From Escherichia phage RB32: DNA of 64,000 nt. The stretch's first letter is position 1. Every line of letters begins with the position of its first letter. Below are positions 1 through 59,526 of the stretch, piece after piece. The notes below the pieces were generated by a model, which was given only the letters and a program-made list of their open reading frames with translations, was not told where the DNA came from and made no database searches. Position numbers and translations under genes: made by a program. The stretch lies in sequence record NC_008515.1. One strand, given 5' to 3'.

Positions 1-138
1 CCAATCACGTACGCGTTTACGATAATGTCTTCCTTGATACCAGTATCCTACCCAATTTACAGGTACTAATAAAAATGGAACTATTAATGGAAGAATTAGC
101 ATTAACACAAGTATTTCGCTAGAATCAATATCAGTCAT
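1..138 (-). CDS. Partial ORF at window edge; hydrophobic small protein, start codon uncertain (ATG at 136-138 or further upstream)
   Basis: Open minus-strand frame running off the window start; translation ...MTDIDSSEILVLMLILPLIVPFLLVPVNWVGYW... has a likely TM segment; GGAGG 13 nt upstream of the ATG. Confidence 0.3.
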   Translation of the reverse strand, partial: MTDIDSSEILVLMLILPLIVPFLLVPVNWVGYWYQGRHYRKRVRDW

Positions 139-250
139 AACATCTAAAACACCTCCAATAATCAATAGAATTACAAATGATATGAGTATAACAGGACCTA
201 TTAATACATCAGTAGAAATTAGCTGACGCTTTAGTTCATACTTCAAAGGT

Positions 251-859
251 TTACTTGGAAGGTATAGTGATGGCTTTGACATATTCTCTACATTCCTTAA
301 CAAATTTTTCTAATAATAAATCACTTTCAAAATTAGGATTTTCTACGAATTTATCAAAAAGATCATCAATAATAGTAAAGATATTCTTTTTACTAAGAAT
401 ACGTTTATTTTCATGCTTCGTTTCAGAATCAACTATAAGAGTAAAGAAATATTTCTTGCCCTGAAATTTTACCGTAGTATCAATATAGAATAAATTTGAC
501 TTTTGTAAATTACGTTTAAACCATGCGTCACTTAAACTATAAACACCGAGATAATCATAATCGTCGTTTAAATAACATACTGTCCATTCAGGAGAAATGA
601 AATCAGTAAATTCAACATCAAAATCACACGTCAATAAATGAATTGATTCAATACTGTTAATAAGTATTCCAGGACGTATTAAAGACTTTTTACCTCTGGA
701 AAATCTTCCAGAAAGACTTTCATCAGTTTCATATGAAGAACCCCAATAATAATTACGTCCTTCTGCCATACGTTTAAGAGCATTTAGTAATTGGTCTGGA
801 ACATCAACTTGTCTTTGGAATTCTTCAAACATTGAATTGAAATCACTTTGCATTTTCAT
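251..859 (-). CDS. Hypothetical protein, 202 aa
   Basis: ORF track; compact arrangement with neighbouring minus-strand genes; no motif recognised. Confidence 0.6.
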   Translation of the reverse strand: MKMQSDFNSMFEEFQRQVDVPDQLLNALKRMAEGRNYYWGSSYETDESLSGRFSRGKKSLIRPGILINSIESIHLLTCDFDVEFTDFISPEWTVCYLNDDYDYLGVYSLSDAWFKRNLQKSNLFYIDTTVKFQGKKYFFTLIVDSETKHENKRILSKKNIFTIIDDLFDKFVENPNFESDLLLEKFVKECREYVKAITIPSK

Positions 860-880
860 TCCTATTTACTCCAAGTAATA

Positions 881-894
881 GGGGCCGAAGCCCC
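881..894 (-). terminator. GC hairpin GGGGCCGAAGCCCC just downstream of the 901..1494 gene; terminator or RNA-stabilising hairpin
   Basis: Perfect 5-bp GC stem with tetraloop; same hairpin recurs near 43011 and 63430. Confidence 0.4.
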
Positions 895-900
895 TTATCA

Positions 901-1494
901 TTATTTCAGAGAATTAATATATTCCTGAACATCGGCAGAGGTAGTTTCAACCCCAGAAATATTGCCATTAAAGGTTTCAACTCGAGCAAGAGTATCTTCA
1001 ATATCAACCTTAGTCAGTGCTGCAATTTCAACTACATCATCGGCAGTACTAATTCCAAGTGCATTCGCTGCTCGAGTTTCACGGATATATTCCAATTTAA
1101 CTGCAAGTTCTTGGCGAGCATCATCCAATTCAACTACTTTCTTGGCGATTTCAATTCGCATTTCAGCATACCCATCAGCTTTAGTAGTTAACTGTTCAGC
1201 TGTTCGACGATATAGCAAGCCGAGTTTAGCATGCATTGTTACATCTTGACCTTCGGAAAGAAGCTTGCGAATTTCACGCTCTTTTGATTCGGCCTGCTTA
1301 TTCTTTTCGACAATAAGTTCACGAATACGCTTTTCTTCATTAATAGATTTAACAGAAGCAGTTTTTAGATCTTTAATTTTATCAAGCAATTTTGCTGCTG
1401 CGGCAGTATACTGCTCTTCAACAGATAGATTTTTAGCCATAGCAGAACCAAGTTTAGTGCGAATAAACTCAACAATTTTCTTCAGTGTGTTCAT
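901..1494 (-). CDS. Coiled-coil protein, 197 aa; possible PspA/IM30-like fold (tentative)
   Basis: Charged heptad-like sequence throughout; segments resemble E. coli PspA in spacing ([14 protein letters not shown] vs KLSETRARQQAL) by eye only. Confidence 0.6.
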
Positions 1495-1537
1495 AGTATT
1501 TCCTTAGGTTGATTAGAAATTAAAATCTGCAGAAGAA

Positions 1538-2071
1538 TTATATCATGCTACTTAAGAGATGTAAACTATTTTTAATTTTACAAATTCGTTCAGCTTCTTC
1601 AACAGCGGCAGTGATAATGCTTTTAGCTATAGGAGTACTAATATTAGTAGCTTTTACACTTAACACGATTTCTTTATCTTTACCAGGCCAACCCCACGAT
1701 TTTTCACCATGAGTGCCTTTAATTACAGCAGACACCTCAAGTGAGCATCCATTATCGCATGTTTTTACATTAACAACCCAAGTGTCACTTTTCTCAACCG
1801 GTTTATCCCAGTAAATATTAAGAATACGTGGGACATCAAATTTAGCAGGGCAAATCTTAACCGTAAGACCTTCGCTTTCTAGCCAATTAATAAGAGGGCG
1901 TTCATACATGCGGCGATGTGGGCTTTGAACTCGACAAGCTTTGTACCCATTGCTTGCGGCTTCACTAAGCTCTTCTAATACATGCTTTTGCATTATTGAT
2001 AAGATACCATCAAAAGATTTTTCGGAAGTTTCATTCAGTTCGGTATAAAGAGACATAACAGTTTTCCTCAA
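1538..2071 (-). CDS. Hypothetical protein, 177 aa, several Cys residues
   Basis: ORF track; no recognised motif. Confidence 0.6.
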   Translation of the reverse strand: MRKTVMSLYTELNETSEKSFDGILSIMQKHVLEELSEAASNGYKACRVQSPHRRMYERPLINWLESEGLTVKICPAKFDVPRILNIYWDKPVEKSDTWVVNVKTCDNGCSLEVSAVIKGTHGEKSWGWPGKDKEIVLSVKATNISTPIAKSIITAAVEEAERICKIKNSLHLLSSMI

Positions 2072-2112
2072 ATTATAGGCTCATAATATCTCAATCATGA
2101 GCCTATGTAAAC

Positions 2113-2388
2113 TTATTTCATATTATTGAAATATTCTTCTGCGATTTCGTCGTTATCATGGTAAACTTTAGAAGACAGTTTAACATAACCTTCAGCAGTG
2201 AACATGTTAATCACAACCTTTACAGTATACCACTGACCATCTTCATTACCCATTACTGCGTAAGTTTCAAACATCGGATGATCAGGACCGATAACTTTAA
2301 TATCATTCACTGTACGACCGAAATCTTCTGAAACACATTTCATAAAGAAGTTGAACAGTTCGCCGTAATTATCCATTTCATTCTCCAA
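2113..2388 (-). CDS. Hypothetical small acidic protein, 91 aa
   Basis: ORF track; preceded by an early-promoter-like module (GTTTACA ... TGGTACTAT) and SD-like GGAGAATGAAATG. Confidence 0.6.
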   Translation of the reverse strand: MENEMDNYGELFNFFMKCVSEDFGRTVNDIKVIGPDHPMFETYAVMGNEDGQWYTVKVVINMFTAEGYVKLSSKVYHDNDEIAEEYFNNMK

Positions 2389-2394
2389 ATTGTT

Positions 2395-2455
2395 TTCTGT
2401 ATCAGTAGTTGATAGTTGTATAGTACCATGGAAGAACAGGGATGTAAACAGTTTT
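2395..2455 (-). promoter_or_regulatory. T4 early-type promoter module (-35 GTTTACA, extended -10 TGGTACTAT) upstream of 2113..2388; related to the repeated modules at 6324-7434
   Basis: Reverse complement reads GTTTACATCCCTGTTCTTCCATGGTACTATAC; shares CAGTAGTTGATAG and TGTAAACA..TTTGTGAAA blocks with the other copies. Confidence 0.4.
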
Positions 2456-2587
2456 GTGAAAAAATTTTTAAAAAGTTTTATGGAATTCTAGGGTCAGGAG
2501 GGACAATTAAAAGGTAGGATAATATATTATAAAGGGTATAAACTAAATGATGCCTAGAGAGACAAGGAAAGGCCTAGATACCAAAAA

Positions 2588-2610
2588 GCCCCAACCTTTC
2601 GGCTGGGGCT
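2588..2610 (-). terminator. Intrinsic terminator downstream of the IP-like gene 2618..3091
   Basis: Minus strand reads AGCCCCAGCCGAAAGGTTGGGGCT followed by TTTTT. Confidence 0.6.
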
Positions 2611-2617
2611 AAGAATG

Positions 2618-3091
2618 TTATTTGATTTGTTTAGCAGACCAAATGCGGTCTTTAATAATTTTTTGGATGTCTTCAACATACTCAAGAGAGTGAGCATGTG
2701 GGTTATCTTTGAAACTATAAGCACGAGCTAACTTTTGACCTTCAGTTTTGATTACTAAAAGCTCTTTAAGGATAGCTTCATATCTGGAGATAATTCCTTT
2801 AACGATATTTTTCTCTTGTGTGACTTTAGGATCTGCTTTAGGAGCAGGTTTACCTGAAGCCTTTGCAAAAGCAGCTCCAGTAGCAACTAAACTTTTCCAA
2901 GCCATACTAACTGCATTCCCTGTAAATCCTTCGGCTTTCATATCACGAGCAAATTGGAATCGTGATTCATCGGAAGCATCTTTATAGGAATATTTACCCG
3001 CGGCAATGGCTGCTTTTGCGACAGCTTGAATTTCGGTGCTAGATGCTTCATTTAACACCGCTTCATTTAAAAATTGAGCATATGATTTCAT
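2618..3091 (-). CDS. Internal-protein-like protein with capsid targeting sequence (MKSYAQFLNEA), 157 aa
   Basis: N-terminus matches the T4 IP capsid-targeting/gp21 cleavage pattern (LNE|A); late promoter upstream; flanked by near-identical hairpins. Confidence 0.65.
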   Translation of the reverse strand: MKSYAQFLNEAVLNEASSTEIQAVAKAAIAAGKYSYKDASDESRFQFARDMKAEGFTGNAVSMAWKSLVATGAAFAKASGKPAPKADPKVTQEKNIVKGIISRYEAILKELLVIKTEGQKLARAYSFKDNPHAHSLEYVEDIQKIIKDRIWSAKQIK

Positions 3092-3127
3092 CTTATTTCC
3101 TGTTTTAATTCGGGGTTTTAATATACT

Positions 3128-3135
3128 TATTTATA
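3128..3135 (-). promoter_or_regulatory. T4 late promoter TATAAATA (minus strand) upstream of IP-like gene
   Basis: Plus strand TATTTATA; about 37 nt upstream of the ATG at 3091. Confidence 0.5.
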
Positions 3136-3141
3136 CTAAAA

Positions 3142-3165
3142 AGCCCCAACCTTTCGGTCGGGGCT
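3142..3165 (-). terminator. Intrinsic terminator at the end of the tRNA/stable-RNA transcription unit
   Basis: Minus strand AGCCCCGACCGAAAGGTTGGGGCT + TTTTT; near-identical to hairpin at 2588-2610. Confidence 0.6.
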
Positions 3166-3214
3166 AAGCCTTGCGGCAACCTTGTCGGGGTTCCACCTGC
3201 TAAGGCAAGTGTTT

Positions 3215-3481
3215 GTACGAAACGCCGGGATTCGAACCCGGTTATTAAGCAGTTGACGCTACTCAATATTTTTAAAAGGCCATATCTCGACCATATCCGA
3301 ACGTTCCGTCAAAAACGCTACTCGGCTTACGGCAAAGATATTTCCTCGAATCGATAATTCGGTGCGCCGTTTCTGCTGTGATGTAAGAGGGCATCAACAA
3401 ATCATAAAGATTTATTAACACAATTCCTTACTCAGGGAACATCAGTCCGACGACTTACCGGTAGCGACCCGGTTTCTTGTT
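3215..3481 (-). ncRNA. Stable small RNA region downstream of tRNA-Arg (positional equivalent of T4 species 1/2 RNAs rnaC/rnaD); boundaries approximate
   Basis: No credible ORF; tRNA-like T-arm CCGGGTTCGAATCCCGG near the 3' end (plus 3226-3245); position matches T4 layout. Confidence 0.35.
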
Positions 3482-3558
<77 letters not shown>

Positions 3559-3561
3559 TAA

Positions 3562-4227
3562 TTAAAATTTCATTTTTCGACCTTTAAACCATCCTTCTGG
3601 AATTGGGTCAGTTTTCTTAATACGTTTAGAAACTTTTTCATCTAATGAATGAATCCACATCATACCAAATTGGGAATTCTTTTCGCCCTGTTGGTGTTTA
3701 TTTCTGGCGTGAGATTCTTTCATTTTATTAATAGTTTCAGGAGTATGATGCTTATTTAAAAATCTGCTATTATTTAAAAATTTTTCCCTGTATTCAGGAG
3801 TTGACCACAAGCGTTTAAATACATTTGAACCATGTTTACGATATTTTTCTTGAAGTAAAATATCATTTTTAAAACGTGACTTAAACGATTTAGCTCCTTT
3901 TAAACTAGCGTCTTTCTTCTGGTTTAGCATCCTAGGAATATTTATATGGTCCCATCCACCTTCACCACCAAGTTTTAAATTATACACATCTGGTCTATTT
4001 AAAAACTCTTCTGTGACAATATTTTTCTCGGCTTCAAGCATAGATTCTTTATCATCAAAATACTCTAATATTTCTTTAGAAAAATTTTCTATACCATATT
4101 TATCTTGGGCTCTTTTTAATAATTTACCAGAACCCATATATCCATCATCTAAATTTTCGGTAGAATGCACACCAATATAAATTTTATTATTAATTTTATT
4201 TGTTATTTTATAAGTGTAATGGAACAT
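3562..4227 (-). CDS. segB: GIY-YIG homing endonuclease SegB, 221 aa
   Basis: N-terminal YKITNKINNKIYIGVHS GIY-YIG motif; sits inside the tRNA cluster as in T4; same length as T4 SegB. Confidence 0.85.
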   Translation of the reverse strand: MFHYTYKITNKINNKIYIGVHSTENLDDGYMGSGKLLKRAQDKYGIENFSKEILEYFDDKESMLEAEKNIVTEEFLNRPDVYNLKLGGEGGWDHINIPRMLNQKKDASLKGAKSFKSRFKNDILLQEKYRKHGSNVFKRLWSTPEYREKFLNNSRFLNKHHTPETINKMKESHARNKHQQGEKNSQFGMMWIHSLDEKVSKRIKKTDPIPEGWFKGRKMKF

Positions 4228-4268
4228 AAATATCTCCTATTTCTAAGAGTATTTATGTTCCCAAAATA

Positions 4269-4340
4269 TGGCCCTGGGTGGAATTGAACCACCATCTGGC
4301 GATTATGAGTCGCTTGCTTGAACCTTCCAGCTACAGGGCC
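4269..4340 (-). tRNA. tRNA with anticodon CAT (T4 tRNA-Ile-like, AUA-reading after modification, or Met); no encoded CCA
   Basis: Acceptor GGCCCTG/CAGGGCC, anticodon loop CTCATAA, T-arm GGTGG TTCAATT CCACC. Confidence 0.75.
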
Positions 4341-4341
4341 T

Positions 4342-4417
4342 TGGTGCTGATTGACGGAATCGAACCGCCGACCTTCTCATTACAAGTGAGTTGCTCTACC
4401 TACTGAGCTAAATCAGC
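4342..4417 (-). tRNA. tRNA-Thr (anticodon TGT), CCA encoded
   Basis: Acceptor GCTGATT/AATCAGC, D-arm GCTCAGTAGGTAGAGC, anticodon loop CTTGTAA, T-loop TTCGATT. Confidence 0.85.
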
Positions 4418-4419
4418 AA

Positions 4420-4506
4420 CGGAGGCGATAGGATTTGAACCTATGAGTCGCCGGAGCGACTGCCGGTTTTCAAGACCGGTGCATTAAACCACTCTGCCAC
4501 GCCTCC
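4420..4506 (-). tRNA. tRNA-Ser (anticodon TGA), long variable arm
   Basis: Acceptor GGAGGCG/CGCCTCC, anticodon stem CCGGT/ACCGG with loop CTTGAAA, long variable arm, T-loop TTCAAAT. Confidence 0.85.
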
Positions 4507-4508
4507 AG

Positions 4509-4582
4509 TCTCCATACAAGGATTTGAACCTTGGACCTCCTGATCCCAAATCAGGCGCTCTACCAAACTGAGCTACACGGAG
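4509..4582 (-). tRNA. tRNA-Pro (anticodon TGG)
   Basis: D-arm GCTCAGTTTGGTAGAGC, anticodon stem CCTGA/TCAGG with loop TTTGGGA, T-arm CAAGG TTCAAAT CCTTG. Confidence 0.8.
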
Positions 4583-4592
4583 TAAATTAAAT

Positions 4593-4666
<74 letters not shown>

Positions 4667-4671
4667 AAATT

Positions 4672-4758
4672 TGGTGCGAGAAGTGGGACTCGAACCCACA
4701 AGGAAATCATTCCGCAGCATTTTAAGTGCTGTGCCTTTACCAATTTGACCATTCTCGC
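4672..4758 (-). tRNA. tRNA-Leu (anticodon TAA), long variable arm, CCA encoded
   Basis: Acceptor GCGAGAA/TTCTCGC, anticodon stem CAGCA/TGCTG with loop CTTAAAA, T-arm GTGGG TTCGAGT CCCAC. Confidence 0.85.
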
Positions 4759-4759
4759 G

Positions 4760-4832
4760 CTGGGAATAAAGGACTCGAACCTTTGCATCTAGCAGTCAAA
4801 GTGCTATGCCTTACCAACTTGGCTAATTCCCA
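4760..4832 (-). tRNA. tRNA-Gln (anticodon TTG)
   Basis: Acceptor TGGGAAT/ATTCCCA, anticodon stem TAGCA/TGCTA with loop CTTTGAC, T-arm AAAGG TTCGAGT CCTTT. Confidence 0.85.
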
Positions 4833-4918
4833 ATTATTAACAAAGGCTCTCAAGCAAGAACCCTTGATGATAGAGGGTATTAATCAGTGCGGTATGAGTT
4901 AATAATAACAAATAATTC

Positions 4919-5434
4919 TTAAAGCAAATTAAACATTTTAACAGTCGGCAAAACAATTTCTTTTTCTATATAAGAGTATTTAACACTCTCAACTACACGC
5001 AGAAAATCATAATCATAATATTCAGAAGCACTGCCTAAAATATTAATAAGTCCTTCAAACACTTTATTACCATTCACAAAGAATAAATCAAATACACGTT
5101 CTTCATCTTCTTCGGATTTATTACCAAGGTCAACTTCTATATCAAAGACCTTTTTAATGAATTCTGGATAAAGTTGGTCTGAGAACAGTCCTTCAACCAA
5201 GTATTCATAAATAAAAAGCGATTGCTCGCTGAACAAGCCATTACCACAATAACGTTCAGCTTTAGTACTAGAATGTCTGCTTTTAAACTTCTTTAAAAGA
5301 TATTGAAATTGTAAGATTTCATGCTCTTCTACGCCAAACAGTGTTTTAGTTTTATAGTTGTCACCATCATTTTCCCAGGTAGTGACATCAATTACGTAAC
5401 CCTGCGGAATTGTAGTACCTAAACAAATATTCAT
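4919..5434 (-). CDS. Hypothetical protein, 171 aa (last gene of a 4-gene operon)
   Basis: ORF track; start overlaps the stop of the upstream gene. Confidence 0.6.
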   Translation of the reverse strand: MNICLGTTIPQGYVIDVTTWENDGDNYKTKTLFGVEEHEILQFQYLLKKFKSRHSSTKAERYCGNGLFSEQSLFIYEYLVEGLFSDQLYPEFIKKVFDIEVDLGNKSEEDEERVFDLFFVNGNKVFEGLINILGSASEYYDYDFLRVVESVKYSYIEKEIVLPTVKMFNLL

Positions 5435-5727
5435 TTGCTCACCATATTAATGTAAGTATATTCAATACATTCAAGACCCAAAGGATTTTTGAAAATATCA
5501 TATTCAAGAGGACCTTTTTCCGTTTCAATAAAGAAATCAAAATTTACTGTATTAAATTTACGGTCTTCCTTCACTAATTTAACCTGAGAAGATGAACGAT
5601 CAATGTAAACCTTTTCAACCTCAAAACATGTTAAAACACCATAATCATCAATCAAGGCTTTGGCTGCTTCTTGATCATATTTATATCCATTTTCAACGGA
5701 TGATACTTTCGCATAAAGAATCATCAT
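5431..5727 (-). CDS. Hypothetical protein, 98 aa
   Basis: ORF track; translationally coupled to both neighbours. Confidence 0.6.
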   Translation of the reverse strand: MMILYAKVSSVENGYKYDQEAAKALIDDYGVLTCFEVEKVYIDRSSSQVKLVKEDRKFNTVNFDFFIETEKGPLEYDIFKNPLGLECIEYTYINMVSK

Positions 5728-6137
5728 TAACCTCTATCAACAATAGCATGAGTATGGGCATTTACAATTTGCCACCAGTCGAAACGATTAGAACCATATT
5801 CTGGTTTATTTTCATTTTCTTTAATGATATCACGCAGTTTATCTTCTGTTTCAGCATACGCAATTAAATCATCATACCCACCACAAGGATAATAATTATC
5901 ACCTGCGAATAAAAGAAAATTTACCTTAGATGGATTTACGTAATAATGGTCTTTAGGATATTTAGTTCCTCTCCAATCAGTTACTTCAACATAACGGTAA
6001 GAAAATCCATTTTTACTTTCAATCCAACTCCACGCTTCAAAAGGAGTATTAAAAACTCTATCAGGTATTAAATTACCTTCAAAATGAGAAGGATTTGCAT
6101 AATCCCCGGCATAAACATAATATTCGTTAATACTCAT
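5727..6137 (-). CDS. Hypothetical protein, 136 aa, aromatic-rich
   Basis: ORF track; abuts the upstream 61-aa ORF with no gap. Confidence 0.6.
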   Translation of the reverse strand: MSINEYYVYAGDYANPSHFEGNLIPDRVFNTPFEAWSWIESKNGFSYRYVEVTDWRGTKYPKDHYYVNPSKVNFLLFAGDNYYPCGGYDDLIAYAETEDKLRDIIKENENKPEYGSNRFDWWQIVNAHTHAIVDRG

Positions 6138-6323
6138 TTATTCACCTTTAGAAATTTTATCCATAACGATAGCAATTAAACCAATTAAAAATGCTACTAC
6201 AAGTGAAAACACATTTTCTGCTGTAGTTAATAATCCGCATATAAATCCAACAAACATTGAAAAACTAAAAGCAGAAGCAGAAATTGCAATAGCAACATTT
6301 CGAATTAATTCACAACGTTTCAT
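6138..6323 (-). CDS. Small membrane protein, 61 aa, two predicted TM helices
   Basis: Hydrophobic segments AIAISASAFSFSMFVGFICGLL and FSLVVAFLIGLIAIV; first gene after an early-promoter module. Confidence 0.5.
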   Translation of the reverse strand: MKRCELIRNVAIAISASAFSFSMFVGFICGLLTTAENVFSLVVAFLIGLIAIVMDKISKGE

Positions 6324-6391
6324 TTTATTCTCCTCAGTAGTTGATAGGGTAATAGTATCACTACCCCATCTAAAAGTAAACGGTTTATAAA
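6324..6391 (-). promoter_or_regulatory. Repeated early-promoter module (variant A) with SD, upstream of the 4-gene operon
   Basis: Reverse complement: GTTTACTTTTAGATGGGGTAGTGATACTATTACCCTATCAACTACTGAGGAGAATAAAATG; near-identical copy at 7035-7104. Confidence 0.5.
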
Positions 6392-6700
6392 CTATTTTAT
6401 TCCGCGTGATGCAATTGTGTTCTGCCGTTTAGCACCAGTTTGTTTAAAATCATGATTGTCGATTTGATCGGTACGAGCAACTCCGAATGATGATTTGATT
6501 TTAGCTTTAGATCCTTTAGTTATAGAAATAAACATCTCGGAAGCCCCTTTCTTAAAGTCCGAGGCGATTACTTCAACGCCGTTCTTAGCAAGTGACTTCA
6601 GAATTGCCTCAGCATACTCATCGTCAAGACTCGCCTGAGTATTAATAACGAATGTCTTTGGCGCAGCCGCTTCATTGATAAATTCTTTAAATGTTTTCAT
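6392..6700 (-). CDS. Internal-protein-like protein with capsid targeting sequence (MKTFKEFINEA), 102 aa
   Basis: N-terminal CTS with (I)NE|A cleavage motif; own early promoter; at the T4 ipI locus position. Confidence 0.7.
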   Translation of the reverse strand: MKTFKEFINEAAAPKTFVINTQASLDDEYAEAILKSLAKNGVEVIASDFKKGASEMFISITKGSKAKIKSSFGVARTDQIDNHDFKQTGAKRQNTIASRGIK

Positions 6701-6761
6701 TTTATTTTCCTAATTAATTTTTGATGAGATAATAGTATCACTACCCTATTTAAAAGTAAAC
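6701..6761 (-). promoter_or_regulatory. Repeated early-promoter module (variant B)
   Basis: -35 GTTTAC and TGATACTAT -10 on minus strand; shares AATAGTATCACTACC core; near-identical copy at 7363-7434. Confidence 0.5.
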
Positions 6762-7034
6762 TCATTTTAAATAAATTGCGTATTTTTTATAACCCGCTGA
6801 CTCATGACGAAGACCCTTATCATTAGCAAAACGCTCAATGTTGTTAATTTGATTCTGATCAAGTTCAGAGATGTCAAACACGAAAAAGTTACGTTTGTTA
6901 CCAACTGTTATATAGTCAGTTAAATCAATATCATATAGGTAATTGATGTCAGCAATCAAAGTCTTGACAGCTTTGCTAATTTTTACTTTTTCGTTAAAAG
7001 CAGCTTCAGAAATAAATTCTTGATACGTTTTCAT
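6762..7034 (-). CDS. Internal-protein-like protein with capsid targeting sequence (MKTYQEFISEA), 90 aa
   Basis: N-terminus almost identical to the canonical T4 IP targeting sequence; ISE|A cleavage motif. Confidence 0.7.
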   Translation of the reverse strand: MKTYQEFISEAAFNEKVKISKAVKTLIADINYLYDIDLTDYITVGNKRNFFVFDISELDQNQINNIERFANDKGLRHESAGYKKYAIYLK

Positions 7035-7104
7035 TTTATTCTCCTCAGTAGTTGATAGGGTAATAGTATCACAGCTAAAACCCTATGTAAACAACTTTGT
7101 GAAA
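7035..7104 (-). promoter_or_regulatory. Repeated early-promoter module (variant A copy)
   Basis: CTCCTCAGTAGTTGATAGGGTAATAGTATCAC ... TGTAAACAACTTTGTGAAATTA repeat. Confidence 0.5.
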
Positions 7105-7362
7105 TTACTTTAAATCTTCTAATCGTTTCTTCATCTTAGAACCATTTTTAGCGATTTCTCCTGCATCGGAGCATAATGCTAAAAGCGCTTTAACTTTAGT
7201 TTGGTCTCCTTTAAAAGATGAAGGATCGACTGCAGCAGCAAGTTCTTTAATACGAGAGAAAAGACGCTCAGCTTCAGCTAAAGCCATTCCAAGCTTTACT
7301 TCCATACCGTGGGAAGATTCAGTGATAGTAGTTTTTGTAGCAAACTCTTTGAAAGTTTTCAT
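7105..7362 (-). CDS. Internal-protein-like protein with capsid targeting sequence (MKTFKEFATK...ITE|S), 85 aa
   Basis: CTS-like N-terminus, own early promoter, adjacent to 57B where T4 carries ipI. Confidence 0.65.
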   Translation of the reverse strand: MKTFKEFATKTTITESSHGMEVKLGMALAEAERLFSRIKELAAAVDPSSFKGDQTKVKALLALCSDAGEIAKNGSKMKKRLEDLK

Positions 7363-7434
7363 TTTATTTTCCTAATTAATTTTGATGAGGTAATAGTATC
7401 ACTACCTCATCAGCATGTAAACAACTTTGTGAAA
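7363..7434 (-). promoter_or_regulatory. Repeated early-promoter module (variant B copy)
   Basis: TCCTAATTAATTTTGATGAGGTAATAGTATCACTACC ... TGTAAACAACTTTGTGAAATTA repeat. Confidence 0.5.
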
Positions 7435-8119
<685 letters not shown>

Positions 8120-8120
<1 letters not shown>

Positions 8121-8845
8121 TATAGTACCTTTAGTGTATTTTTAATTTTAGAAAAAAGTTCTTCAAGAGAACCATCGTTTGTAATTACTAAATCGCCATC
8201 ACGAATTGGCAATCCAGCTTCTGTAATATGTGTATCATTGGATTTTTGACCAGGACGAACTACATGAATTACTGTAGCACCCATCGCCCTAGCCGCATCC
8301 ATTTCATGATCTTGACGGGTATCAGGAACGATATAATAATCATAACCTGAGTTAAATTTATCAAGATAATCTAAAGCAAATAATTTTACCCAGTACATGC
8401 GGTCGAAGTTATTAACAATCAAATCCGTACCTAGGGCTTGCATCAGACGACGGACTGACCATTGATCTTCAATATTATTTATAACGTCAATAATCTTGTT
8501 AAATGCTACGGAATTAACTGATTCTTTTCCTTCGTCATCAAAAACAAACACACCTTTAATTGGGCTTTTACCATTAAGATAGCAAAATGCTTGTTCCATA
8601 ATCGTGATTACTTCTAATTTAGTCAGATTTAAATTAGTCTCACGATCATAGTCAATTCCTTCAAACTCTTTACGAGTTAAGCAAGGATAGTCAGTGTTTG
8701 CTGCAAATACTCCCCATGCATAAGCCAATGCATCCTTAATAGGACCAGCAAGTTGGTATTTAACTGCAGAATAATTGCTCATGATAAAATCAGCAGTAGT
8801 ATCTTTTCCACTACGCTTTACACCGCTTAAAAAGATTAGTTTCAT
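8120..8845 (-). CDS. 1: gp1 deoxynucleoside monophosphate kinase
   Basis: P-loop GVKRSGKDTT; start taken at internal ATG with GAGGAG SD, giving 241 aa as in T4 (ORF track has a 13-codon extension). Confidence 0.85.
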
Positions 8846-8894
8846 GTGTTTCTCCTCAAATTTAATTAAGATTATAACACACAAAACTGAAGCA

Positions 8895-9425
8895 TTAAAC
8901 TTCTGCTATAATTTTTCCATCTTTTTCTACTTGAAAATAGGTGTAAGGAATCGTTGCAGTACATACTAAAGCCGGGTCTGAATCTTCTGTGTAGCTAAAT
9001 TCTACTTCAGATAGGTCAGAAACCCAAGGCTTATAAAAATTTATTGACATCACTATTTCAGTTTTGCTATTATCTAAGATGTAAAGCGTAATGTACTCAG
9101 GACCTGTTTTTTGGGCAGTATTTTCACCTGTAAGATAGTTGCTAGTTCCTAGCATCCATTCATACATTCCTATCCACGACTTAAGTTCTTCATCAACTAT
9201 AAATCTCACAATGAGTGGATCATACTCAAATGTAACACCTGGACGTTGTGCTCGGCCCAGTCCAAACGGCCCAGTCACGGTATCAGTAACAGGTATTCTA
9301 ATTCCTGGAATAGGAACTGACTGAGCATTTAAAGTAAAAGCAGATGTAGTATTACTATGTGGTATTGATACTACAAAGTTAGTTGTATTTGCTTGGTTAA
9401 AAATTTGTTGCAGAGCTTGCGACAT
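8895..9425 (-). CDS. 3: gp3 tail completion/sheath stabiliser
   Basis: Start taken at internal ATG (MSQALQQ...) with GAGGA SD, giving 176 aa as in T4. Confidence 0.8.
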   Translation of the reverse strand: MSQALQQIFNQANTTNFVVSIPHSNTTSAFTLNAQSVPIPGIRIPVTDTVTGPFGLGRAQRPGVTFEYDPLIVRFIVDEELKSWIGMYEWMLGTSNYLTGENTAQKTGPEYITLYILDNSKTEIVMSINFYKPWVSDLSEVEFSYTEDSDPALVCTATIPYTYFQVEKDGKIIAEV

Positions 9426-9531
9426 ATATTCCTCATAATGCTTTATAACTGTTGGTGGTATAATGGGTCTAAGTCCCTTCCATTCAATTCCATTTAGAAC
9501 AAACAATAGAAAAGAATGGAAGATAATAGAA

Positions 9532-10191
9532 TTAATTTATTAGACTTCTTAAACGAGCAGAAGTCATAAATGGAAATTTTTCTAAAGTTGGCTTTCGCCA
9601 ATATCTTGGATGACAAGTTGATTTAAAATCAAGAACAATTTTCTTTGCTTCATCAATAGTGTTAACTCCAAAGTTATCTAACATTATTTTCTTTTCTTTT
9701 TCCCACCGTTTATTAGCTAAAGCAGATTGAAGCTTTTTGTTTTTAAATGTGTCATTTTTTCTAGAATGAGTTGTTCCTTGTGTCGGACTCCATCCTCTTC
9801 CTAAAATAAATCCCTCAGGAATTATATCTCCATCATGCAATTTTATACATCTTTTACCATTATTATAATATTTTCGTCCAGTTTGTGTATTTGAAATATT
9901 ATTTGCATGTTTTCTTTTTAACCAACCATAAACTTTATTATTTCTCCTAACATATTTAGTTGAAACCGTCATTTTTATGGCTGCATAAGATAATTTTAAA
10001 GAATTTGGGTGTATTTTTACTAATAGCTGATGTGCAACATAATGCTCTTCTGGAGTTAAATCAACCAAGTTAGAAGCATCATTACTACCGCCTAAACATT
10101 TCGGAATAATATGATGTCTTTCTTTATATCCAGTAAGGGCTCTATTGCGAGCCCTATCAATTAGTGAATTATAAATTTTTTCATAATTCAT
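9532..10191 (-). CDS. Freestanding HNH homing endonuclease, about 219 aa
   Basis: HNH/His-Me motif [29 protein letters not shown]; ATG overlaps the gene 2 stop (ATGA); T4 has no gene between 2 and 3 as I recall. Confidence 0.8.
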
Positions 10192-11015
10192 CGTACATTG
10201 CTCCAAACTTTGTTTGCAGAGAAACGTTTTCCTTTGGAGTAGAAGCTTTGGAGTGGCATTAACACAACGTTCGCCCAGTCTTTCGGGGCGATTTCAACAA
10301 GGCTACCCATAATATTACCAGGTATATATGCCTTAATCATTTGGTCTGCACCCCTAAATCCTTTCACTTGACTCCAATCAATTTTTAATTTCGTTTTATT
10401 AGTAATAGTAGGTGTATTTGCATATTGCTTTAAAAGCTCTTCTAGAAACTGTTGACGAGCTTTAGGTGGAATATAGTGCAAGTTTAATCCATACATTAAA
10501 TTATGCTTACCTAAACCAAGGTAAATTATTAAAGGAAATTTATCCCAGTAAGGAAGAGTTTCCTTGTGTTTAGCATCATAAGCAAAAGCATATATTCGTC
10601 CCGGCTGCGGGCGAACAACTTTATGTCCTTTTACTTGCTTAATAGTTTCAGCAAACCATTTTCTGGTTTTATTATTAATTGCTGCACCTTCATTACGAAT
10701 TTTATCGCGCAATGTTTGTCTGAATGAATTTATCATAAGCAGTTGTCTTTCTTGCTTATTGAGCTTATTCATTGGTTTTGATTCAAGCTTTTGAATCTTT
10801 TCAGCCGTTTTAATTCCCGAAGCATATTTTGACATTGCCGAAGTAAACGTAGAGTATTTGATTCCTCTTTCTTCAGCAAATTGCTTTCCTGTCATTCCTT
10901 TTGCTTTGGCCTTTTTATATTCAAGACCTATCTGAATCCATTTCTTTTCGTTTAATGATTGCTTAACCTTTGGAACTTGGGGTGTGCTTTCATTAATTAT
11001 TTGAAAAATAGCCAT
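10188..11015 (-). CDS. 2: gp2 DNA end-protector protein
   Basis: 275-aa ORF at the conserved position between 4 and 3; basic protein. Confidence 0.85.
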
Positions 11016-11467
11016 TATGCCCCCTTAAAGCCAAGAGCTCGTAATCCATCTTCTGTTAGAATTCTAAATTTTATTCCACGCTTTTCAGCTAAAGCTTGCG
11101 CTGCTTTCCATTTGTCAGTATTAACAGAATATGTATAAATTTCATTCATAAATCTTTTCTTCGCTGCGGTTGTTAGATGTGCTGGTTTAACTGGTGGTTG
11201 TGTTTCTTTTTTAGGCTTTATTTCAATAAAAAATTCTTGTCCAGAAGAATCTTTCATCCAAATATCCATGAAGTATCTACGTTTTTTCCCTTCTGCATTA
11301 CAAAAATAAGGAATTACTGCTGTTTCACTACCCCATGCAATAATTTCTGGATTTTTATCTAACCATTCAAAAAAGAATTTTTCCCAATTTGATCTATACG
11401 TAATTTTTTTAGGGTCACCTCTATATTTTGATATATTTTTAGGAACCCATTTTCCAGAATATGCCAT
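11015..11467 (-). CDS. 4: gp4 head completion protein
   Basis: 150 aa; sequence and position match T4 gp4. Confidence 0.85.
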
Positions 11468-11478
11468 TGGATTCTCCT

Positions 11479-11501
11479 TATAAATAGATAATATATTTAT
11501 A
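11479..11501. promoter_or_regulatory. Divergent late promoters: TATAAATA on plus (11479-11486, gene 53) and on minus (11494-11501, gene 4)
   Basis: Exact T4 late-promoter octamers on both strands between divergent late genes. Confidence 0.55.
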
Positions 11502-11514
11502 AACAGGAGGGCCC

Positions 11515-12105
11515 ATGCTCTTTACATTTTTTGATCCGATTGAATATGCGGCCAAAACGGTGAATAAAAACGCGCCGACTATTCCTATGACAGATATTTT
11601 TAGAAACTATAAAGACTATTTTAAACGCGCTCTTGCGGGATACCGCTTACGTACTTATTATATTAAAGGTTCACCACGCCCGGAAGAATTAGCAAATACT
11701 ATATATGGAAATCCACAGTTGTATTGGGTTTTATTGATGTGTAATGATAATTATGATCCATATTATGGATGGATTACTTCGCAAGAAGCAGCTTATCAAG
11801 CATCTATACAAAAATACAAAAATGTAGGTGGAGACCAAATAGTATATCATGTGAACGAGAACGGTGAAAAATTTTATAATTTAATATCATACGATGATGA
11901 TCCATATGTTTGGTATGACAAAGGCGATAAAGCTAGAAAATATCCTCAATATGAAGGAGCACTTGCTGCTGTTGATACGTATGAAGCGGCTGTTCTTGAA
12001 AATGAAAAACTTCGTCAAATAAAAATAATAGCAAAATCAGACATCAATTCATTTATGAACGACCTTATACGTATAATGGAGAAATCTTATGGAAATGATA
12101 AGTAA
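11515..12105 (+). CDS. 53: gp53 baseplate wedge protein
   Basis: 196 aa; position immediately upstream of gene 5. Confidence 0.9.
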   Translation: MLFTFFDPIEYAAKTVNKNAPTIPMTDIFRNYKDYFKRALAGYRLRTYYIKGSPRPEELANTIYGNPQLYWVLLMCNDNYDPYYGWITSQEAAYQASIQKYKNVGGDQIVYHVNENGEKFYNLISYDDDPYVWYDKGDKARKYPQYEGALAAVDTYEAAVLENEKLRQIKIIAKSDINSFMNDLIRIMEKSYGNDK

Positions 12106-55319: not shown

Positions 55320-57377
55320 CTACATTTTGAACTTTTTAGACATTCCGTTGATGTTAACCAAAGAAGCTAAGATTTGAGAAACTTCATTTTCCTCTTCTTT
55401 TGATTCTTCTACAAGGAATTGATTAAATCCAGTCATTGGACGAACTTCACCAGTTTCCATTAGATGGTCGCCATCATATACTGATTCCTCTAATTGTTCA
55501 GAAGGAGGAACGATTGTACCTTCGATTAGATACTTGTTATAAGCAGTTTCTTTCATAAAGTACGTACTTACTTTATTAATCTTCAGTAAAATTCCACGCG
55601 GTAGAATAACTTCAGCTTCTGATGGAAATCCTGATAAATGACCTGGAACGATAACTTTGATTCGCTCAGCTCCTTTAATTACCATACCCACGCTAGTTTC
55701 AGCATCTTCATTGGCATATGTAGAATGACTACCCGTATGCATTAAATCTTCTGCATCAACGGAACCTTCTCCTTCACCAGAAAATACTGCGCCGGAATCA
55801 TCTAGAGCCATATAGTTTTTACCATGCTCACCGAAGATATTTGGTTTAAGCGATGTGGATACGAAGTTCTTGAAATAGAACATTTTATTTTCAATGTTAT
55901 GACGCAAAGTTTTAAAGGTAACTTCTTGTCCACGATAAAGCGTAGTTCCTGGAGGAAGAACCGAACCTTTAGCGAATGCAGAATCCAACGTCTCGATGTG
56001 CTTAATGGCACGTTCCATATATTCTTCACGGGTAGAATCTGGTTTACCCAAAAGGAACGAGTTCATTTCAACATATGAATCTGCACAATAATCTTCAATT
56101 ACATCAGATTCAGCTTGAGTTAATCCTTTTGGAGTTACTTCGGTGCTTGCGTATTCATATGCCTGAGCGGCAGATTCATTAATCAATTTATAAATGCCAT
56201 TCATTACAAATTGAATAATAGCTGTCTTTTCATCTGGCGTAGCTTTAGAACCTTTAACCAAATCATTGATAATTTTCTTAATAACATCAAAGCTATTAGA
56301 AATATTAATATCAGCAAGATCGCTTAAAATTTTATCAGTTTTATAATCAAAGAATTCTTTATTCTTTAAATATTCTTGAGAACCTTGATATGTTATATCG
56401 CTCTGCAACTTGATGGATGGATCACGTAAACGTGCATGGGCTAATGCAATATGATTTCGGAAGTTTTCTAGTTCATAATCGCTAGATTTAAAACGAGAAG
56501 CACTCCTCATACCACCGATAGCTCCTTTGCTGAAGTTTGAACCAATCTGAATAACGCCAGAGTTCATTGGTCCTTCTGCTTTATATACCGGAACTTTAGA
56601 TTCAAACTCTTGATATTTCTTAGCAGCGAAGCTATCACCCTGAAGTGAAGCATCAACAGTAGAATATTGAGCTTGTGCTGCTAATCGACGACTAATTTTA
56701 GTTTTCTGAATAACAGCTTGGTCCGTGCGCTTATCATTTTCTAAAGCAATAGAAGCAGCAACAGCGACAGCTTTAGGAACAGCATTACCTGTTTTAACGT
56801 CTACATAAACATCACCAACCTTTGATTCAACTTTTGTGAATAACTCAGTTGAAATAGGAGGTACACCTGGAATGTCTTCTAAATTGGCATTTTTACGGTA
56901 AACCATAATATATGCATACTTTTTATCATAGTCCCAGATTTCCTTTAAAAGAACATATCGACCTGCTCCTTTAGTACGTACTAAACGGTCAGCAATAACT
57001 TGCATTTGACGAGCAGCGCCATTTGTTTTACTTTTTAGTACGCGGAATAGGCATGCGTCAATTTTATACTGCTTCATTGTTTGAAGAGCAGTATCAAAAA
57101 CAGCATTAATGACACCAATTGGATTTCCACCCAAGTTTCTAAGCTTAACCAGCGATAATTTCTCGTTGACACCTATCATTACGATATGCATCATTTTATC
57201 GCCTGGCTTAACGTTTTTATTCGTATCACCACCAGAGGTGTATGTACAAAATCTAAATCCAGGAAGCACGCTTTCTTCGCCGGCTTGAATAGCAAAAATT
57301 TGTGGTATTTTATGCTTAGGATTTAAGTTAACAACCGGCGCCGAAGCGCCGTCAAATAATTCTGTAATAAGTTCCAT
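55320..57377 (-). CDS. Alt-family ADP-ribosyltransferase paralog, 685 aa
   Basis: N-terminal about 230 aa closely parallels the adjacent alt product (MELITELFD..., KIDAC, GRYVLLKE.WDYDKKYAYI); C-terminal ART motifs YRGQ...STS...EAEVILPRG. Confidence 0.8.
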   Translation of the reverse strand: MELITELFDGASAPVVNLNPKHKIPQIFAIQAGEESVLPGFRFCTYTSGGDTNKNVKPGDKMMHIVMIGVNEKLSLVKLRNLGGNPIGVINAVFDTALQTMKQYKIDACLFRVLKSKTNGAARQMQVIADRLVRTKGAGRYVLLKEIWDYDKKYAYIMVYRKNANLEDIPGVPPISTELFTKVESKVGDVYVDVKTGNAVPKAVAVAASIALENDKRTDQAVIQKTKISRRLAAQAQYSTVDASLQGDSFAAKKYQEFESKVPVYKAEGPMNSGVIQIGSNFSKGAIGGMRSASRFKSSDYELENFRNHIALAHARLRDPSIKLQSDITYQGSQEYLKNKEFFDYKTDKILSDLADINISNSFDVIKKIINDLVKGSKATPDEKTAIIQFVMNGIYKLINESAAQAYEYASTEVTPKGLTQAESDVIEDYCADSYVEMNSFLLGKPDSTREEYMERAIKHIETLDSAFAKGSVLPPGTTLYRGQEVTFKTLRHNIENKMFYFKNFVSTSLKPNIFGEHGKNYMALDDSGAVFSGEGEGSVDAEDLMHTGSHSTYANEDAETSVGMVIKGAERIKVIVPGHLSGFPSEAEVILPRGILLKINKVSTYFMKETAYNKYLIEGTIVPPSEQLEESVYDGDHLMETGEVRPMTGFNQFLVEESKEEENEVSQILASLVNINGMSKKFKM

Positions 57378-59474: not shown

Positions 59475-59526
59475 CATATCCTCTCTAGTGTTTATTCTAT
59501 TTATAAAATTAAAGGCCCGAAGGCCT

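Follow-up and report, generated by a model that had tools for sequence, protein, structure and literature searches.

Our combined findings suggest that the genes for internal head proteins (Ip) of Escherichia phage RB32 are exchanged as promoter-plus-gene cassettes. In the 64,000-nucleotide (nt) stretch of this genome analyzed here (NC_008515.1; hereafter the window), the genes for Ip5, Ip9 and Ip7 lie between the conserved genes 57B and tRNA.4, and each of the three, as well as tRNA.4 itself, is preceded by a copy of an early-promoter module. The blocks composed of promoter, leader and capsid-targeting codons very probably supply the homology for cassette exchange by general recombination between 57B and tRNA.4. 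Comparison with 16 close relatives, T2 and RB15 placed all junctions in this array inside the modules, as a preliminary description of the window had anticipated, or in the adjoining capsid-targeting codons, and revealed no breaks inside Ip gene bodies between 57B and tRNA.4.

Early-promoter modules in the window

Annotation was taken from the record of phage RB33 (KM607001.1, Tequatrovirus RB32), which is 100% identical to the window (window position = record position minus 64119); the phage is called RB33 below. The minus strand carries every gene in window positions 1-12000. The preliminary description had listed five repeats, at 2395-2455, 6324-6391, 6701-6761, 7035-7104 and 7363-7434. All five are real, each spanning a full intergenic region on the minus strand, and 5/5 have the elements ascribed to them, GTTTAC(A/T), TG(A/G)TACTAT and a Shine-Dalgarno sequence followed by ATG, with a spacer of 17 nt (starting the count from TTTACW) in every case. 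Such repetition is far beyond chance. The limits first drawn for the repeats were too short, since the similarity reaches ~36 nt into the Ip coding sequences on one side and, on the other, takes in the last ~12 nt of 57B and Ip5.

The promoters were searched for with the pattern TTTACW-N17-TAYWAT, the published consensus of promoter-early stem-loop elements (PeSLs) in the PST/T4 phages (PMC4122927). Seven matches were found in the 64-kb window, whereas Markov simulations gave 0.36 on average and never more than 2, and 7/7 were on the minus strand, from 1537 to 7421, each directly upstream of an open reading frame. They include the five modules and two promoters of the same class that had been overlooked, at 2083-2111 and 1537-1565; all seven also carry TGn. 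A hand count over the promoters gave an A+T content of 68-84% in the 25 nt upstream of the -35 element. The sites thus have the anatomy of T4-class early promoters (GTTTAC/TTTACW, 17-nt spacer, TGn-extended -10, TAnnAT and an A/T-rich, UP-like upstream region), consistent with the description of T4 early promoters as UP/-35/TGn/-10 promoters (PMC2988021). Equivalent sites in the record of phage fPS-90 were annotated by its authors as predicted early promoters.

The array begins at its conserved left anchor, gene 57B (Acb1; 7435-7890, RB33 annotation; all array features are on the minus strand). Between 57B and Ip5 lies module P_Ip5 (7363-7434; -35 TTTACA at 7421-7416, TGA, -10 TACTAT at 7398-7393), with an upstream block that we term U1 (AATTTCACAAAGTTG) and a type B leader (AGGAAAATAAA-ATG). 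It is followed by Ip5 (7105-7362, 85 amino acids (aa); 'Ip5' in an RB33 note; PHROG 3499, E = 1e-49), codons 1-12 of which (7327-7362) encode the capsid-targeting sequence, the protein beginning MKTFKEFATK. Module P_Ip9, between Ip5 and Ip9 (7035-7104; TTTACA at 7091-7086, -10 at 7068-7063), again has U1, here with a type A leader (GAGGAGAATAAA-ATG), and precedes Ip9 (6762-7034, 90 aa, RB33 annotation; PHROG 7673, E = 3.5e-55), which begins MKTYQEFISE. Module P_Ip7, between Ip9 and Ip7 (6701-6761; TTTACT at 6760-6755, -10 at 6737-6732, leader type B), precedes Ip7 (6392-6700, 102 aa, RB33 annotation; PHROG 2667, E = 2e-41), which begins MKTFKEFINE. The last module, P_tRNA.4, between Ip7 and tRNA.4 (6324-6391; TTTACT at 6380-6375, -10 at 6357-6352, leader type A), is the predicted promoter of tRNA.4-tRNA.3-tRNA.2 and the tRNA cluster. 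It stands before the conserved right anchor, tRNA.4 (6138-6323), which encodes a 61-aa membrane protein (RB33 annotation; PHROG 1692).

The three Ip proteins belong to three separate PHROG families, all named internal head protein, and a Pfam search with seven proteins gave no match. They are small proteins, encoded between 57B and tRNA.4, that resemble one another mainly in their first ~12-28 residues, including a capsid-targeting leader of about 11 residues (MKT[FY][KQ]EF..E). Ip5 and Ip7 additionally give a weak alignment (28.6% over 70 aa, E = 2e-4). The proteins of tRNA.4 and e.8, a gene downstream whose promoter is the fifth module, lack this leader.

Modules as mosaics

An exact 12-mer core, GTGATACTATTA, occurs exactly four times, in the four modules of the ip locus. 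The core proposed earlier for all five modules, AATAGTATCAC, is likewise found in these four, and the e.8 module has ATGGTACTATA in its place. The longest exact runs are 44 nt between the Ip9 and tRNA.4 modules, 29 nt between those of Ip7 and Ip5, and 23 nt between those of Ip9 and Ip5; runs of 17-18 nt link the tRNA.4 module to those of Ip7 or Ip5. The 44-nt run is a perfect direct repeat, GTGATACTATTACCCTATCAACTACTGAGGAGAATAAAATGAAA, found by repeat search at 7029-7072 (left copy) and 6318-6361 (right copy), both on the minus strand. Similarity due only to a promoter consensus was ruled out, as the two extra early promoters match the ip-locus modules in the consensus boxes only, whereas the ip-locus modules match each other in exact runs of 17-44 nt. 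The e.8 module (2377-2461, minus strand, earlier placed at 2395-2455; TTTACA at 2448-2443, TGG, TACTAT at 2425-2420) lacks the core 12-mer. It contains a U1-like block (TTTCACAAAACTG), shares TTTCACAAA..TGTTTAC with the ip-locus modules and has a leader segment, CTATCAACTACTGA, in common with type A. It is evidently a diverged relative of these modules, and more than a promoter of the same class.

The pieces of the modules are combined in different ways. U1 is found upstream of Ip5, Ip9 and, approximately, e.8, and another sequence, U2, upstream of Ip7 and tRNA.4. The spacer, which forms the left arm of a hairpin (see below), is of type S1 at Ip5, S2 at Ip9 and S3 at Ip7 and tRNA.4. The right arm is part of the leader, and leaders are of two types, B (TA[C/T]CTCATCAAAATTAATTAGGAAAATAAA) at Ip5 and Ip7 and A (TACCCTATCAACTACTGAGGAGAATAAA) at Ip9 and tRNA.4. 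The alternation of two variants noted in the preliminary description therefore applies to the leader half only and not to the upstream half. To judge from these combinations, the modules are mosaics of exchangeable pieces. S2 and S3 are each seen with both leader types across the relatives, and this requires crossovers in the invariant core. P_Ip7, with a left arm of the tRNA.4 type (S3), a right arm of the Ip5 type (B) and a weak hairpin between these mismatched arms, has the make-up of a recombinant module; in locus L032, Ip7 is preceded by an intact module of S1 and type B. Similarity also extends to the gene ends, with 57B, Ip5 and Ip9 all ending in LK-stop and sharing 3' nucleotides.

The leader types also differ in a short motif. 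Type A leaders (6324-6345 and 7035-7056) carry GAGGAG, which contains GGAG, and type B leaders (6701-6726 and 7363-7387) have AGGAAA and are without GGAG. The T4 endoribonuclease RegB cuts the GGAG motif in early mRNAs. Because this motif is present in type A and missing from type B, cassettes with different leaders may differ in the rate of mRNA inactivation. In the Ip9 module, the predicted fold of read-through RNA allows the U1 block to pair with GGAG.

Cassette variation among related phages

We compared 36 loci around 57B from IMG/VR and 15 annotated GenBank phage loci, including T4, T2, PP01 and RB15. In 47 loci, the number of cassettes between 57B and tRNA.4 ranged from 0 to 5; the cassettes represented at least 19 protein families and formed 25 different arrangements. 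Cassette order varies as well; Ip7-Ip9 in L005 corresponds to Ip9-Ip7 in RB33, and Ip5, first in RB33, is third in L014. The right anchor tRNA.4 was present in 45/47 loci. A promoter module was found at 46/46 gene starts in 17 Tequatrovirus arrays.

Junctions were mapped in window positions as the ends of homology blocks relative to RB33, and we directly observed them inside the repeated blocks. The segment missing from KMB39 and PP01 comprises Ip9 and Ip7 and runs exactly from one 44-nt perfect repeat to the other (junctions at 7029 and 6364). In T2, which has no Ip9, the module before Ip7 begins as the left half of P_Ip9 and switches to a type B leader at the 12-nt core. Locus L032 lacks Ip5 and Ip9 (7342/6745), the junction lying between repeats made of type B leader and targeting codons. 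Replacements behave similarly. In T4, 235Ecol030PP and KAW1E185, IpI replaces Ip5 with breaks at 7328, which is 34 nt into the targeting codons, and at 7105, where the Ip5 stop codon meets the start of U1. In ZCEC15-type phages, a 77-aa Ip replaces Ip9 and Ip7 (breaks at 6999 and 6381), and RB15 has an additional Ip8, with a break at 6341, just past the right arm and inside the module. A 300-nt coding sequence annotated beside Ip5 at a spacing of 10 nt in IME537 (L046) and JLBYU24 (L049) was set aside as an artefact of upstream-start annotation. Its annotated start is ~66 nt too far upstream and covers the module, and a 77-aa MKTFKEF reading, behind a normal module, fits the other phages.

The junctions fall at no fewer than six module positions (upstream edge, -35, core, past the right arm, ATG+5, +20 and +35). 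General homologous recombination therefore fits better than a site-specific cut. The 44-nt repeats are 711 nt apart and the core repeats 331 nt apart, spacings from which mini-circles of 711 and 331 bp would be predicted. Independent mobility, originally attributed to every gene behind a module, is borne out for Ip5, Ip9 and Ip7. It does not extend to the nearly universal tRNA.4, nor to e.8, at whose module no homology break was found in 13 relatives.

Hairpins across the -10 element

The stem-loop typical of PeSLs was found in 3-4/5 modules, with a strong hairpin in three of them. The predicted fold of the Ip5 module has 13 base pairs (bp) across the -10 (-20.2 kcal/mol, z = -4.1), that of the tRNA.4 module 12 bp (z = -1.6), and that of the Ip9 module a 7-bp outer stem (ATAGGGT/ACCCTAT) together with an inner stem (z = -2.1). 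The Ip7 hairpin is degraded (-4.4 kcal/mol, z = +0.85) and the e.8 module has no hairpin (fold z = +0.8). Outside the array, the promoter at 2083-2111 has a perfect 13-bp hairpin, ATAGGCTCAT.../...ATGAGCCTAT, around its -10 (-18.2 kcal/mol, z = -4.4, 0/200 shuffles as stable); its architecture is the same and its arm sequence is unrelated to that of the ip-locus modules. A search of window positions 1-12000 with Rfam 15 covariance models (E <= 1) returned tRNAs only, none of them in the modules.

For a wider comparison, the modules of 47 loci were placed in register without gaps, which gave 43 distinct sequences. Native pairs of arms had a mean stability of -9.97 kcal/mol, compared with -7.42 +/- 0.43 for permuted pairs, and 0/2000 permutations were as stable. 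The arms are thus co-adapted, and this co-adaptation spans six or more types of arm sequence. In addition, the sense strand was more stable than the antisense strand in 39/43 modules, an advantage to which G-U pairs imposed by the TGn and -10 consensus contribute.

Transcripts from a module's own promoter start within or beyond the right arm, which leaves read-through RNA and single-stranded DNA as the only places where the hairpin can form. From this we infer its function: the inverted repeat around the -10 would fold only in transcripts coming from upstream and would there most likely attenuate or punctuate read-through, leaving each cassette to be expressed from its own promoter. The hairpin could also be a selected structural element, acting either as a folded recombination hotspot that a structure-specific nuclease or a binding protein would target, with mini-circles as intermediates, or as an RNA silencer of read-through. 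This idea draws on the unrelated arm sequences of at least six types, including that at 2083-2111, on the stability of the sense strand and on crossovers at the loop; we regard it as a distinctly long shot. If it were true that the -10 hairpin is a recombination hotspot, the Ip array would amount to a recombinase-free, integron-like cassette system.

Weighing the explanations for cassette exchange

From the junctions we infer the following pathway. Each module would act as a strong promoter, read by host sigma-70 RNA polymerase right after infection. Promoter, leader and the first ~11 Ip codons form a block of 45-110 nt, repeated almost unchanged before genes that are otherwise unrelated. The general homologous recombination of the phage would cross over in these blocks, within one genome or between co-infecting T-even phages, and such crossovers would delete, insert, replace or reorder promoter-plus-gene cassettes between the anchors 57B and tRNA.4. 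Recombination between very short stretches of homology is known from T4 (PMC9391042; PMC2839356).

Several observations weigh against this explanation or against a role of the hairpin in it. Distant T4-like phages (57B 74-88% identical) have ~30/139 gene starts with gaps of no more than 8 nt, mostly ATGA overlaps, and no promoter, and their arrays still vary; the promoter is thus not indispensable for shuffling in these phages. A mosaic boundary in the N-terminal part of tRNA.3 (5923-6134), where nucleotide similarity is lost in KMB39, 235Ecol030PP, IME537, JLBYU24 and L032 with flanks at 87-98%, lies away from any module. Moreover, whole-gene replacement must put breaks near gene ends, so that the indels bounded exactly by repeats are the stronger evidence. 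As for the hairpin, column-wise covariation in the 43 modules was modest, with 72.7% of cells paired compared with 70.6% after shuffling, a value reached by 6/500 shuffles, because there are at least two stem registers and natural hybrids among the modules; permuting the arms was the more informative test. At the top of the stem, three 'pairs' follow from the TGn and -10 consensus. The hairpins lack a U-tract on their downstream side, where the stems run into TCAAAATTAATT or TCAACTACTGAG, and a terminator scan made no calls in the modules, though it found terminators at 3142-3165 and 2587-2610; classical intrinsic termination is therefore unlikely.

The behavior of the distant T4-like phages raises the question of whether coding homology alone is the substrate, with the targeting codons (MKT[FY][KQ]EF) and the LK-stop ends recombining and promoter and hairpin carried along as passengers. 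There, 57B and the first Ip gene overlap at the stop codon of 57B (…AAAATGAAAAC, ATGA), and the next Ip genes follow 1-8 nt apart; such compact promoterless arrays were found (at ~6453 in each) in L003, L008, L012, L015, L019-L021, L023-L029, L034, L035 and L037. Since these arrays vary without promoters, the coding leader and the gene ends are enough homology in the distant phages, and the LK-stop ends of 57B, Ip5 and Ip9 in RB33, with their common 3' nucleotides, look like a remnant of an ATGA junction. The breaks at 7342, 7328 and 6999 are also within targeting codons. Nevertheless, we consider coding homology alone unlikely to account for the RB33 array. Non-coding junctions exist (the 12-nt core in T2, 6361/6364, 6381, 6745 and 6341), tRNA.4 has no targeting sequence and yet its 44-nt perfect repeat with the Ip9 module bounds an indel, and the promoter module is present at every start in the 17 Tequatrovirus arrays.

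An integron-like exchange, in which a dedicated protein or nuclease would act on the -10 hairpin or cruciform, possibly by way of mini-circles, would agree with the co-adapted arms and with the several junctions at the loop or core. It also has a precedent in the PeSL mini-circles demonstrated in RB49/phi1, for which a specific binding protein was suggested (PMC2839356). However, the core is the longest invariant stretch, where homology alone predicts crossovers, and the junctions are spread over the module. Recombinant modules with broken hairpins persist (Ip7), distant relatives shuffle cassettes that have no hairpins, and no integrase or recombinase gene is annotated in the interval. We rejected site-specific exchange as the main mechanism because junction positions vary, and hold it to be very improbable in any form. 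Tandem duplication of one ancestral promoter and ip gene, the promoters and leaders being kept alike by purifying selection as the gene bodies drifted apart, and the repeats having no role in exchange, has in its favor that the modules are alike in function and consensus and that Ip5 and Ip7 align weakly over their full length. Under this scenario, however, one would not expect non-functional spacer and leader positions to be 100% identical over 44-77 nt before unrelated genes, when two other early promoters in the window match in the boxes only. Nor would it account for indels bounded exactly by repeats, for hybrid modules, or for the same cassettes in different orders and combinations. Given three PHROG families and the evidence of junctions and hybrids, simple tandem paralogy was rejected, and we see scarcely any chance that duplication explains the array. 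General recombination in the repeated blocks is thus the explanation we favor.

Expression of the cassettes

Early expression of the cassettes, which the preliminary description had claimed, can be followed in T4. In a T4 time course, ipI gave early RNA and late protein, trna.4 early RNA, and trna.2, trna.3, e.7 and e.8 both early RNA and early protein (PMC9697503). Gene 57B, upstream of ipI, gave middle RNA (PMC9697503), and an independent early promoter between the two genes predicts just this pattern. The P_Ip9 region (7029-7105) matches the T4 module before trna.4 with 100% identity across all 77 nt, and P_Ip5, which lies inside a 787-nt T4 match of 95.7% starting in 57B, differs by ~2 nt from the module that T4 has before ipI. 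The claim thus stands for the T4 orthologues ipI, trna.4 and e.8, and the near-identical T4 modules make it probable that the RB33 promoters are active in the same way.

The late-promoter motif TATAAATA was not found within the array; the nearest copy upstream on the same strand is at 8476-8483. For packaged Ip proteins to be supplied late, transcription would therefore have to continue or to read through. Internal proteins enter the cell together with the injected DNA, and the ones characterized so far disarm host defences, with Ip1, Ip2 and Ip3 acting against GmrSD-type restriction (PMC12373910, PMC9391042).

Elsewhere in the window, two tandem Alt paralogues (PHROG 802) lie on the minus strand at 55320-57377 and 57381-59477, 2.09 kb apart, with ~71-78% nucleotide identity in repeated stretches. 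Alt, an RNA-polymerase ADP-ribosyltransferase, is injected and reportedly boosts the activity of some early promoters of T4.

Neighboring loci

Downstream of the array, the conserved gene e.8 (2113-2376, minus strand, 87 aa, RB33 annotation; PHROG 2678) is followed, in the region 1538-2112 (minus strand), by RB33_132 (172 aa; PHROG 6869), which stands in place of T4 e.7. The replacement is bounded by the two extra early promoters. One lies upstream of RB33_132 (2057-2112, minus strand; TTTACA at 2111-2106, 17-nt spacer, TATTAT; promoter at 2083-2111), where the T4 break is at 2061. The other lies upstream of e.6 (1537-1565, minus strand; TTTACA, 17 nt, TGATATAAT), where homology with T4 and further relatives is regained at 1511-1542, and has no hairpin. 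Junctions of the hyperplastic kind associated with PeSLs were thus found in the array and at RB33_132, and not at e.8.

A different kind of repeat surrounds RB33_134 (coding sequence 2618-3091). This gene encodes 157 aa with an Ip-like leader (MKSYAQFLNEA), has the late-promoter motif TATAAATA at 3128-3135, and is bracketed by a 36-nt direct repeat, 92% identical, at 2578-2613 and 3133-3168 on the minus strand. The repeat is a strong terminator hairpin (AGCCCC..GGGGCT followed by a T-run). At this site T4 has one copy of the hairpin and no gene, whereas two genes of this kind are present in OMNI12, fPS-90 and UGKSEcP2, and a different gene in Killian. The region looks like a second cassette locus, late-expressed, in which the boundary repeat is a terminator and not a promoter. 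Finally, a tRNA with anticodon CAU (4269-4340, minus strand) is tRNA-Met according to ARAGORN and the RB33 record, and its T4 counterpart is annotated as tRNA-Ile.

Relation to known systems

The module array of RB33 is a rediscovery of an already known T-even feature, first described in 1994. Repoila, Tetart, Bouet and Krisch reportedly described a conserved N-terminal leader that year and proposed recombinational shuffling. According to a later account, PeSL-like sequences at two highly variable IP (internal protein) loci are credited to this work (Repoila et al. 1994, EMBO J 13:4181; PMC2839356). GenBank entry Z35082.1, 'Bacteriophage RB15 DNA for Ip5, Ip9, Ip7, Ip8', is 98% identical to window positions 6341-7443, and thus represents the same 57B-tRNA.4 locus with the same genes, except that RB33 is without Ip8. 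PeSLs were then defined in RB49/phi1 by Arbiol et al. in 2010, who showed promoter and terminator activity as well as mini-circles and proposed inter-PeSL recombination as the mechanism of shuffling; terminator activity was measured for one PeSL only (PMC2839356). Comeau et al. extended PeSLs to the PST/T4 pair in 2014 and repeated the point about the IP locus (PMC4122927).

The reading of the repeats as PeSL-type shuffling signals, put forward in the preliminary description, is supported by the early-promoter consensus, the Shine-Dalgarno sequence and ATG, the -10 hairpin in 3/5 modules and the junctions at modules, with the qualification that tRNA.4 and e.8 are conserved and not mobile. Like PeSLs, the RB33 modules combine early promoter, stem-loop and Shine-Dalgarno/ATG in a hyperplastic region, stand before small variable genes and lie near indel or replacement junctions, and stem-loops overlapping the -10 are a published sub-class. 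However, the T-even IP elements have been called analogues, not homologues, of the RB49/phi1 PeSLs, differing in their T4-type early promoters and in their weaker, A/T-rich stems without polyG/polyC (PMC2839356). In the PST figure the stems are upstream of the promoter, whereas those of RB33 wrap the -10. Terminator activity and mini-circles have been demonstrated in the RB49/phi1 PeSLs only.

Integrons, an analogy drawn in PMC2839356, likewise keep small single-gene cassettes, which can be interchanged, in an array at a fixed locus, with imperfect inverted repeats as boundaries. The RB33 array differs in having no annotated integrase, a promoter for each cassette and junctions spread over a homologous block; the annotated interval, the seven promoters and the junction map do not reveal integron cassettes or attC sites. 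As with the linkers of Botstein and Campbell, conserved flanks direct module exchange to safe sites in RB33. The cassettes also resemble the morons of Hendrix in being self-expressed add-on genes, but morons are not thought to move via regulatory sequences, whereas in RB33 the regulatory block is itself the homology.

For the window, the analysis places seven early promoters and identifies Ip5-Ip9-Ip7 as one state of a well-known hyperplastic locus. The repeat map indicates which repeats likely cause deletions, and opens no new question. For the T-even phages more generally, a swappable promoter-plus-leader block in front of anti-defence genes would explain how their host range can be retuned quickly.

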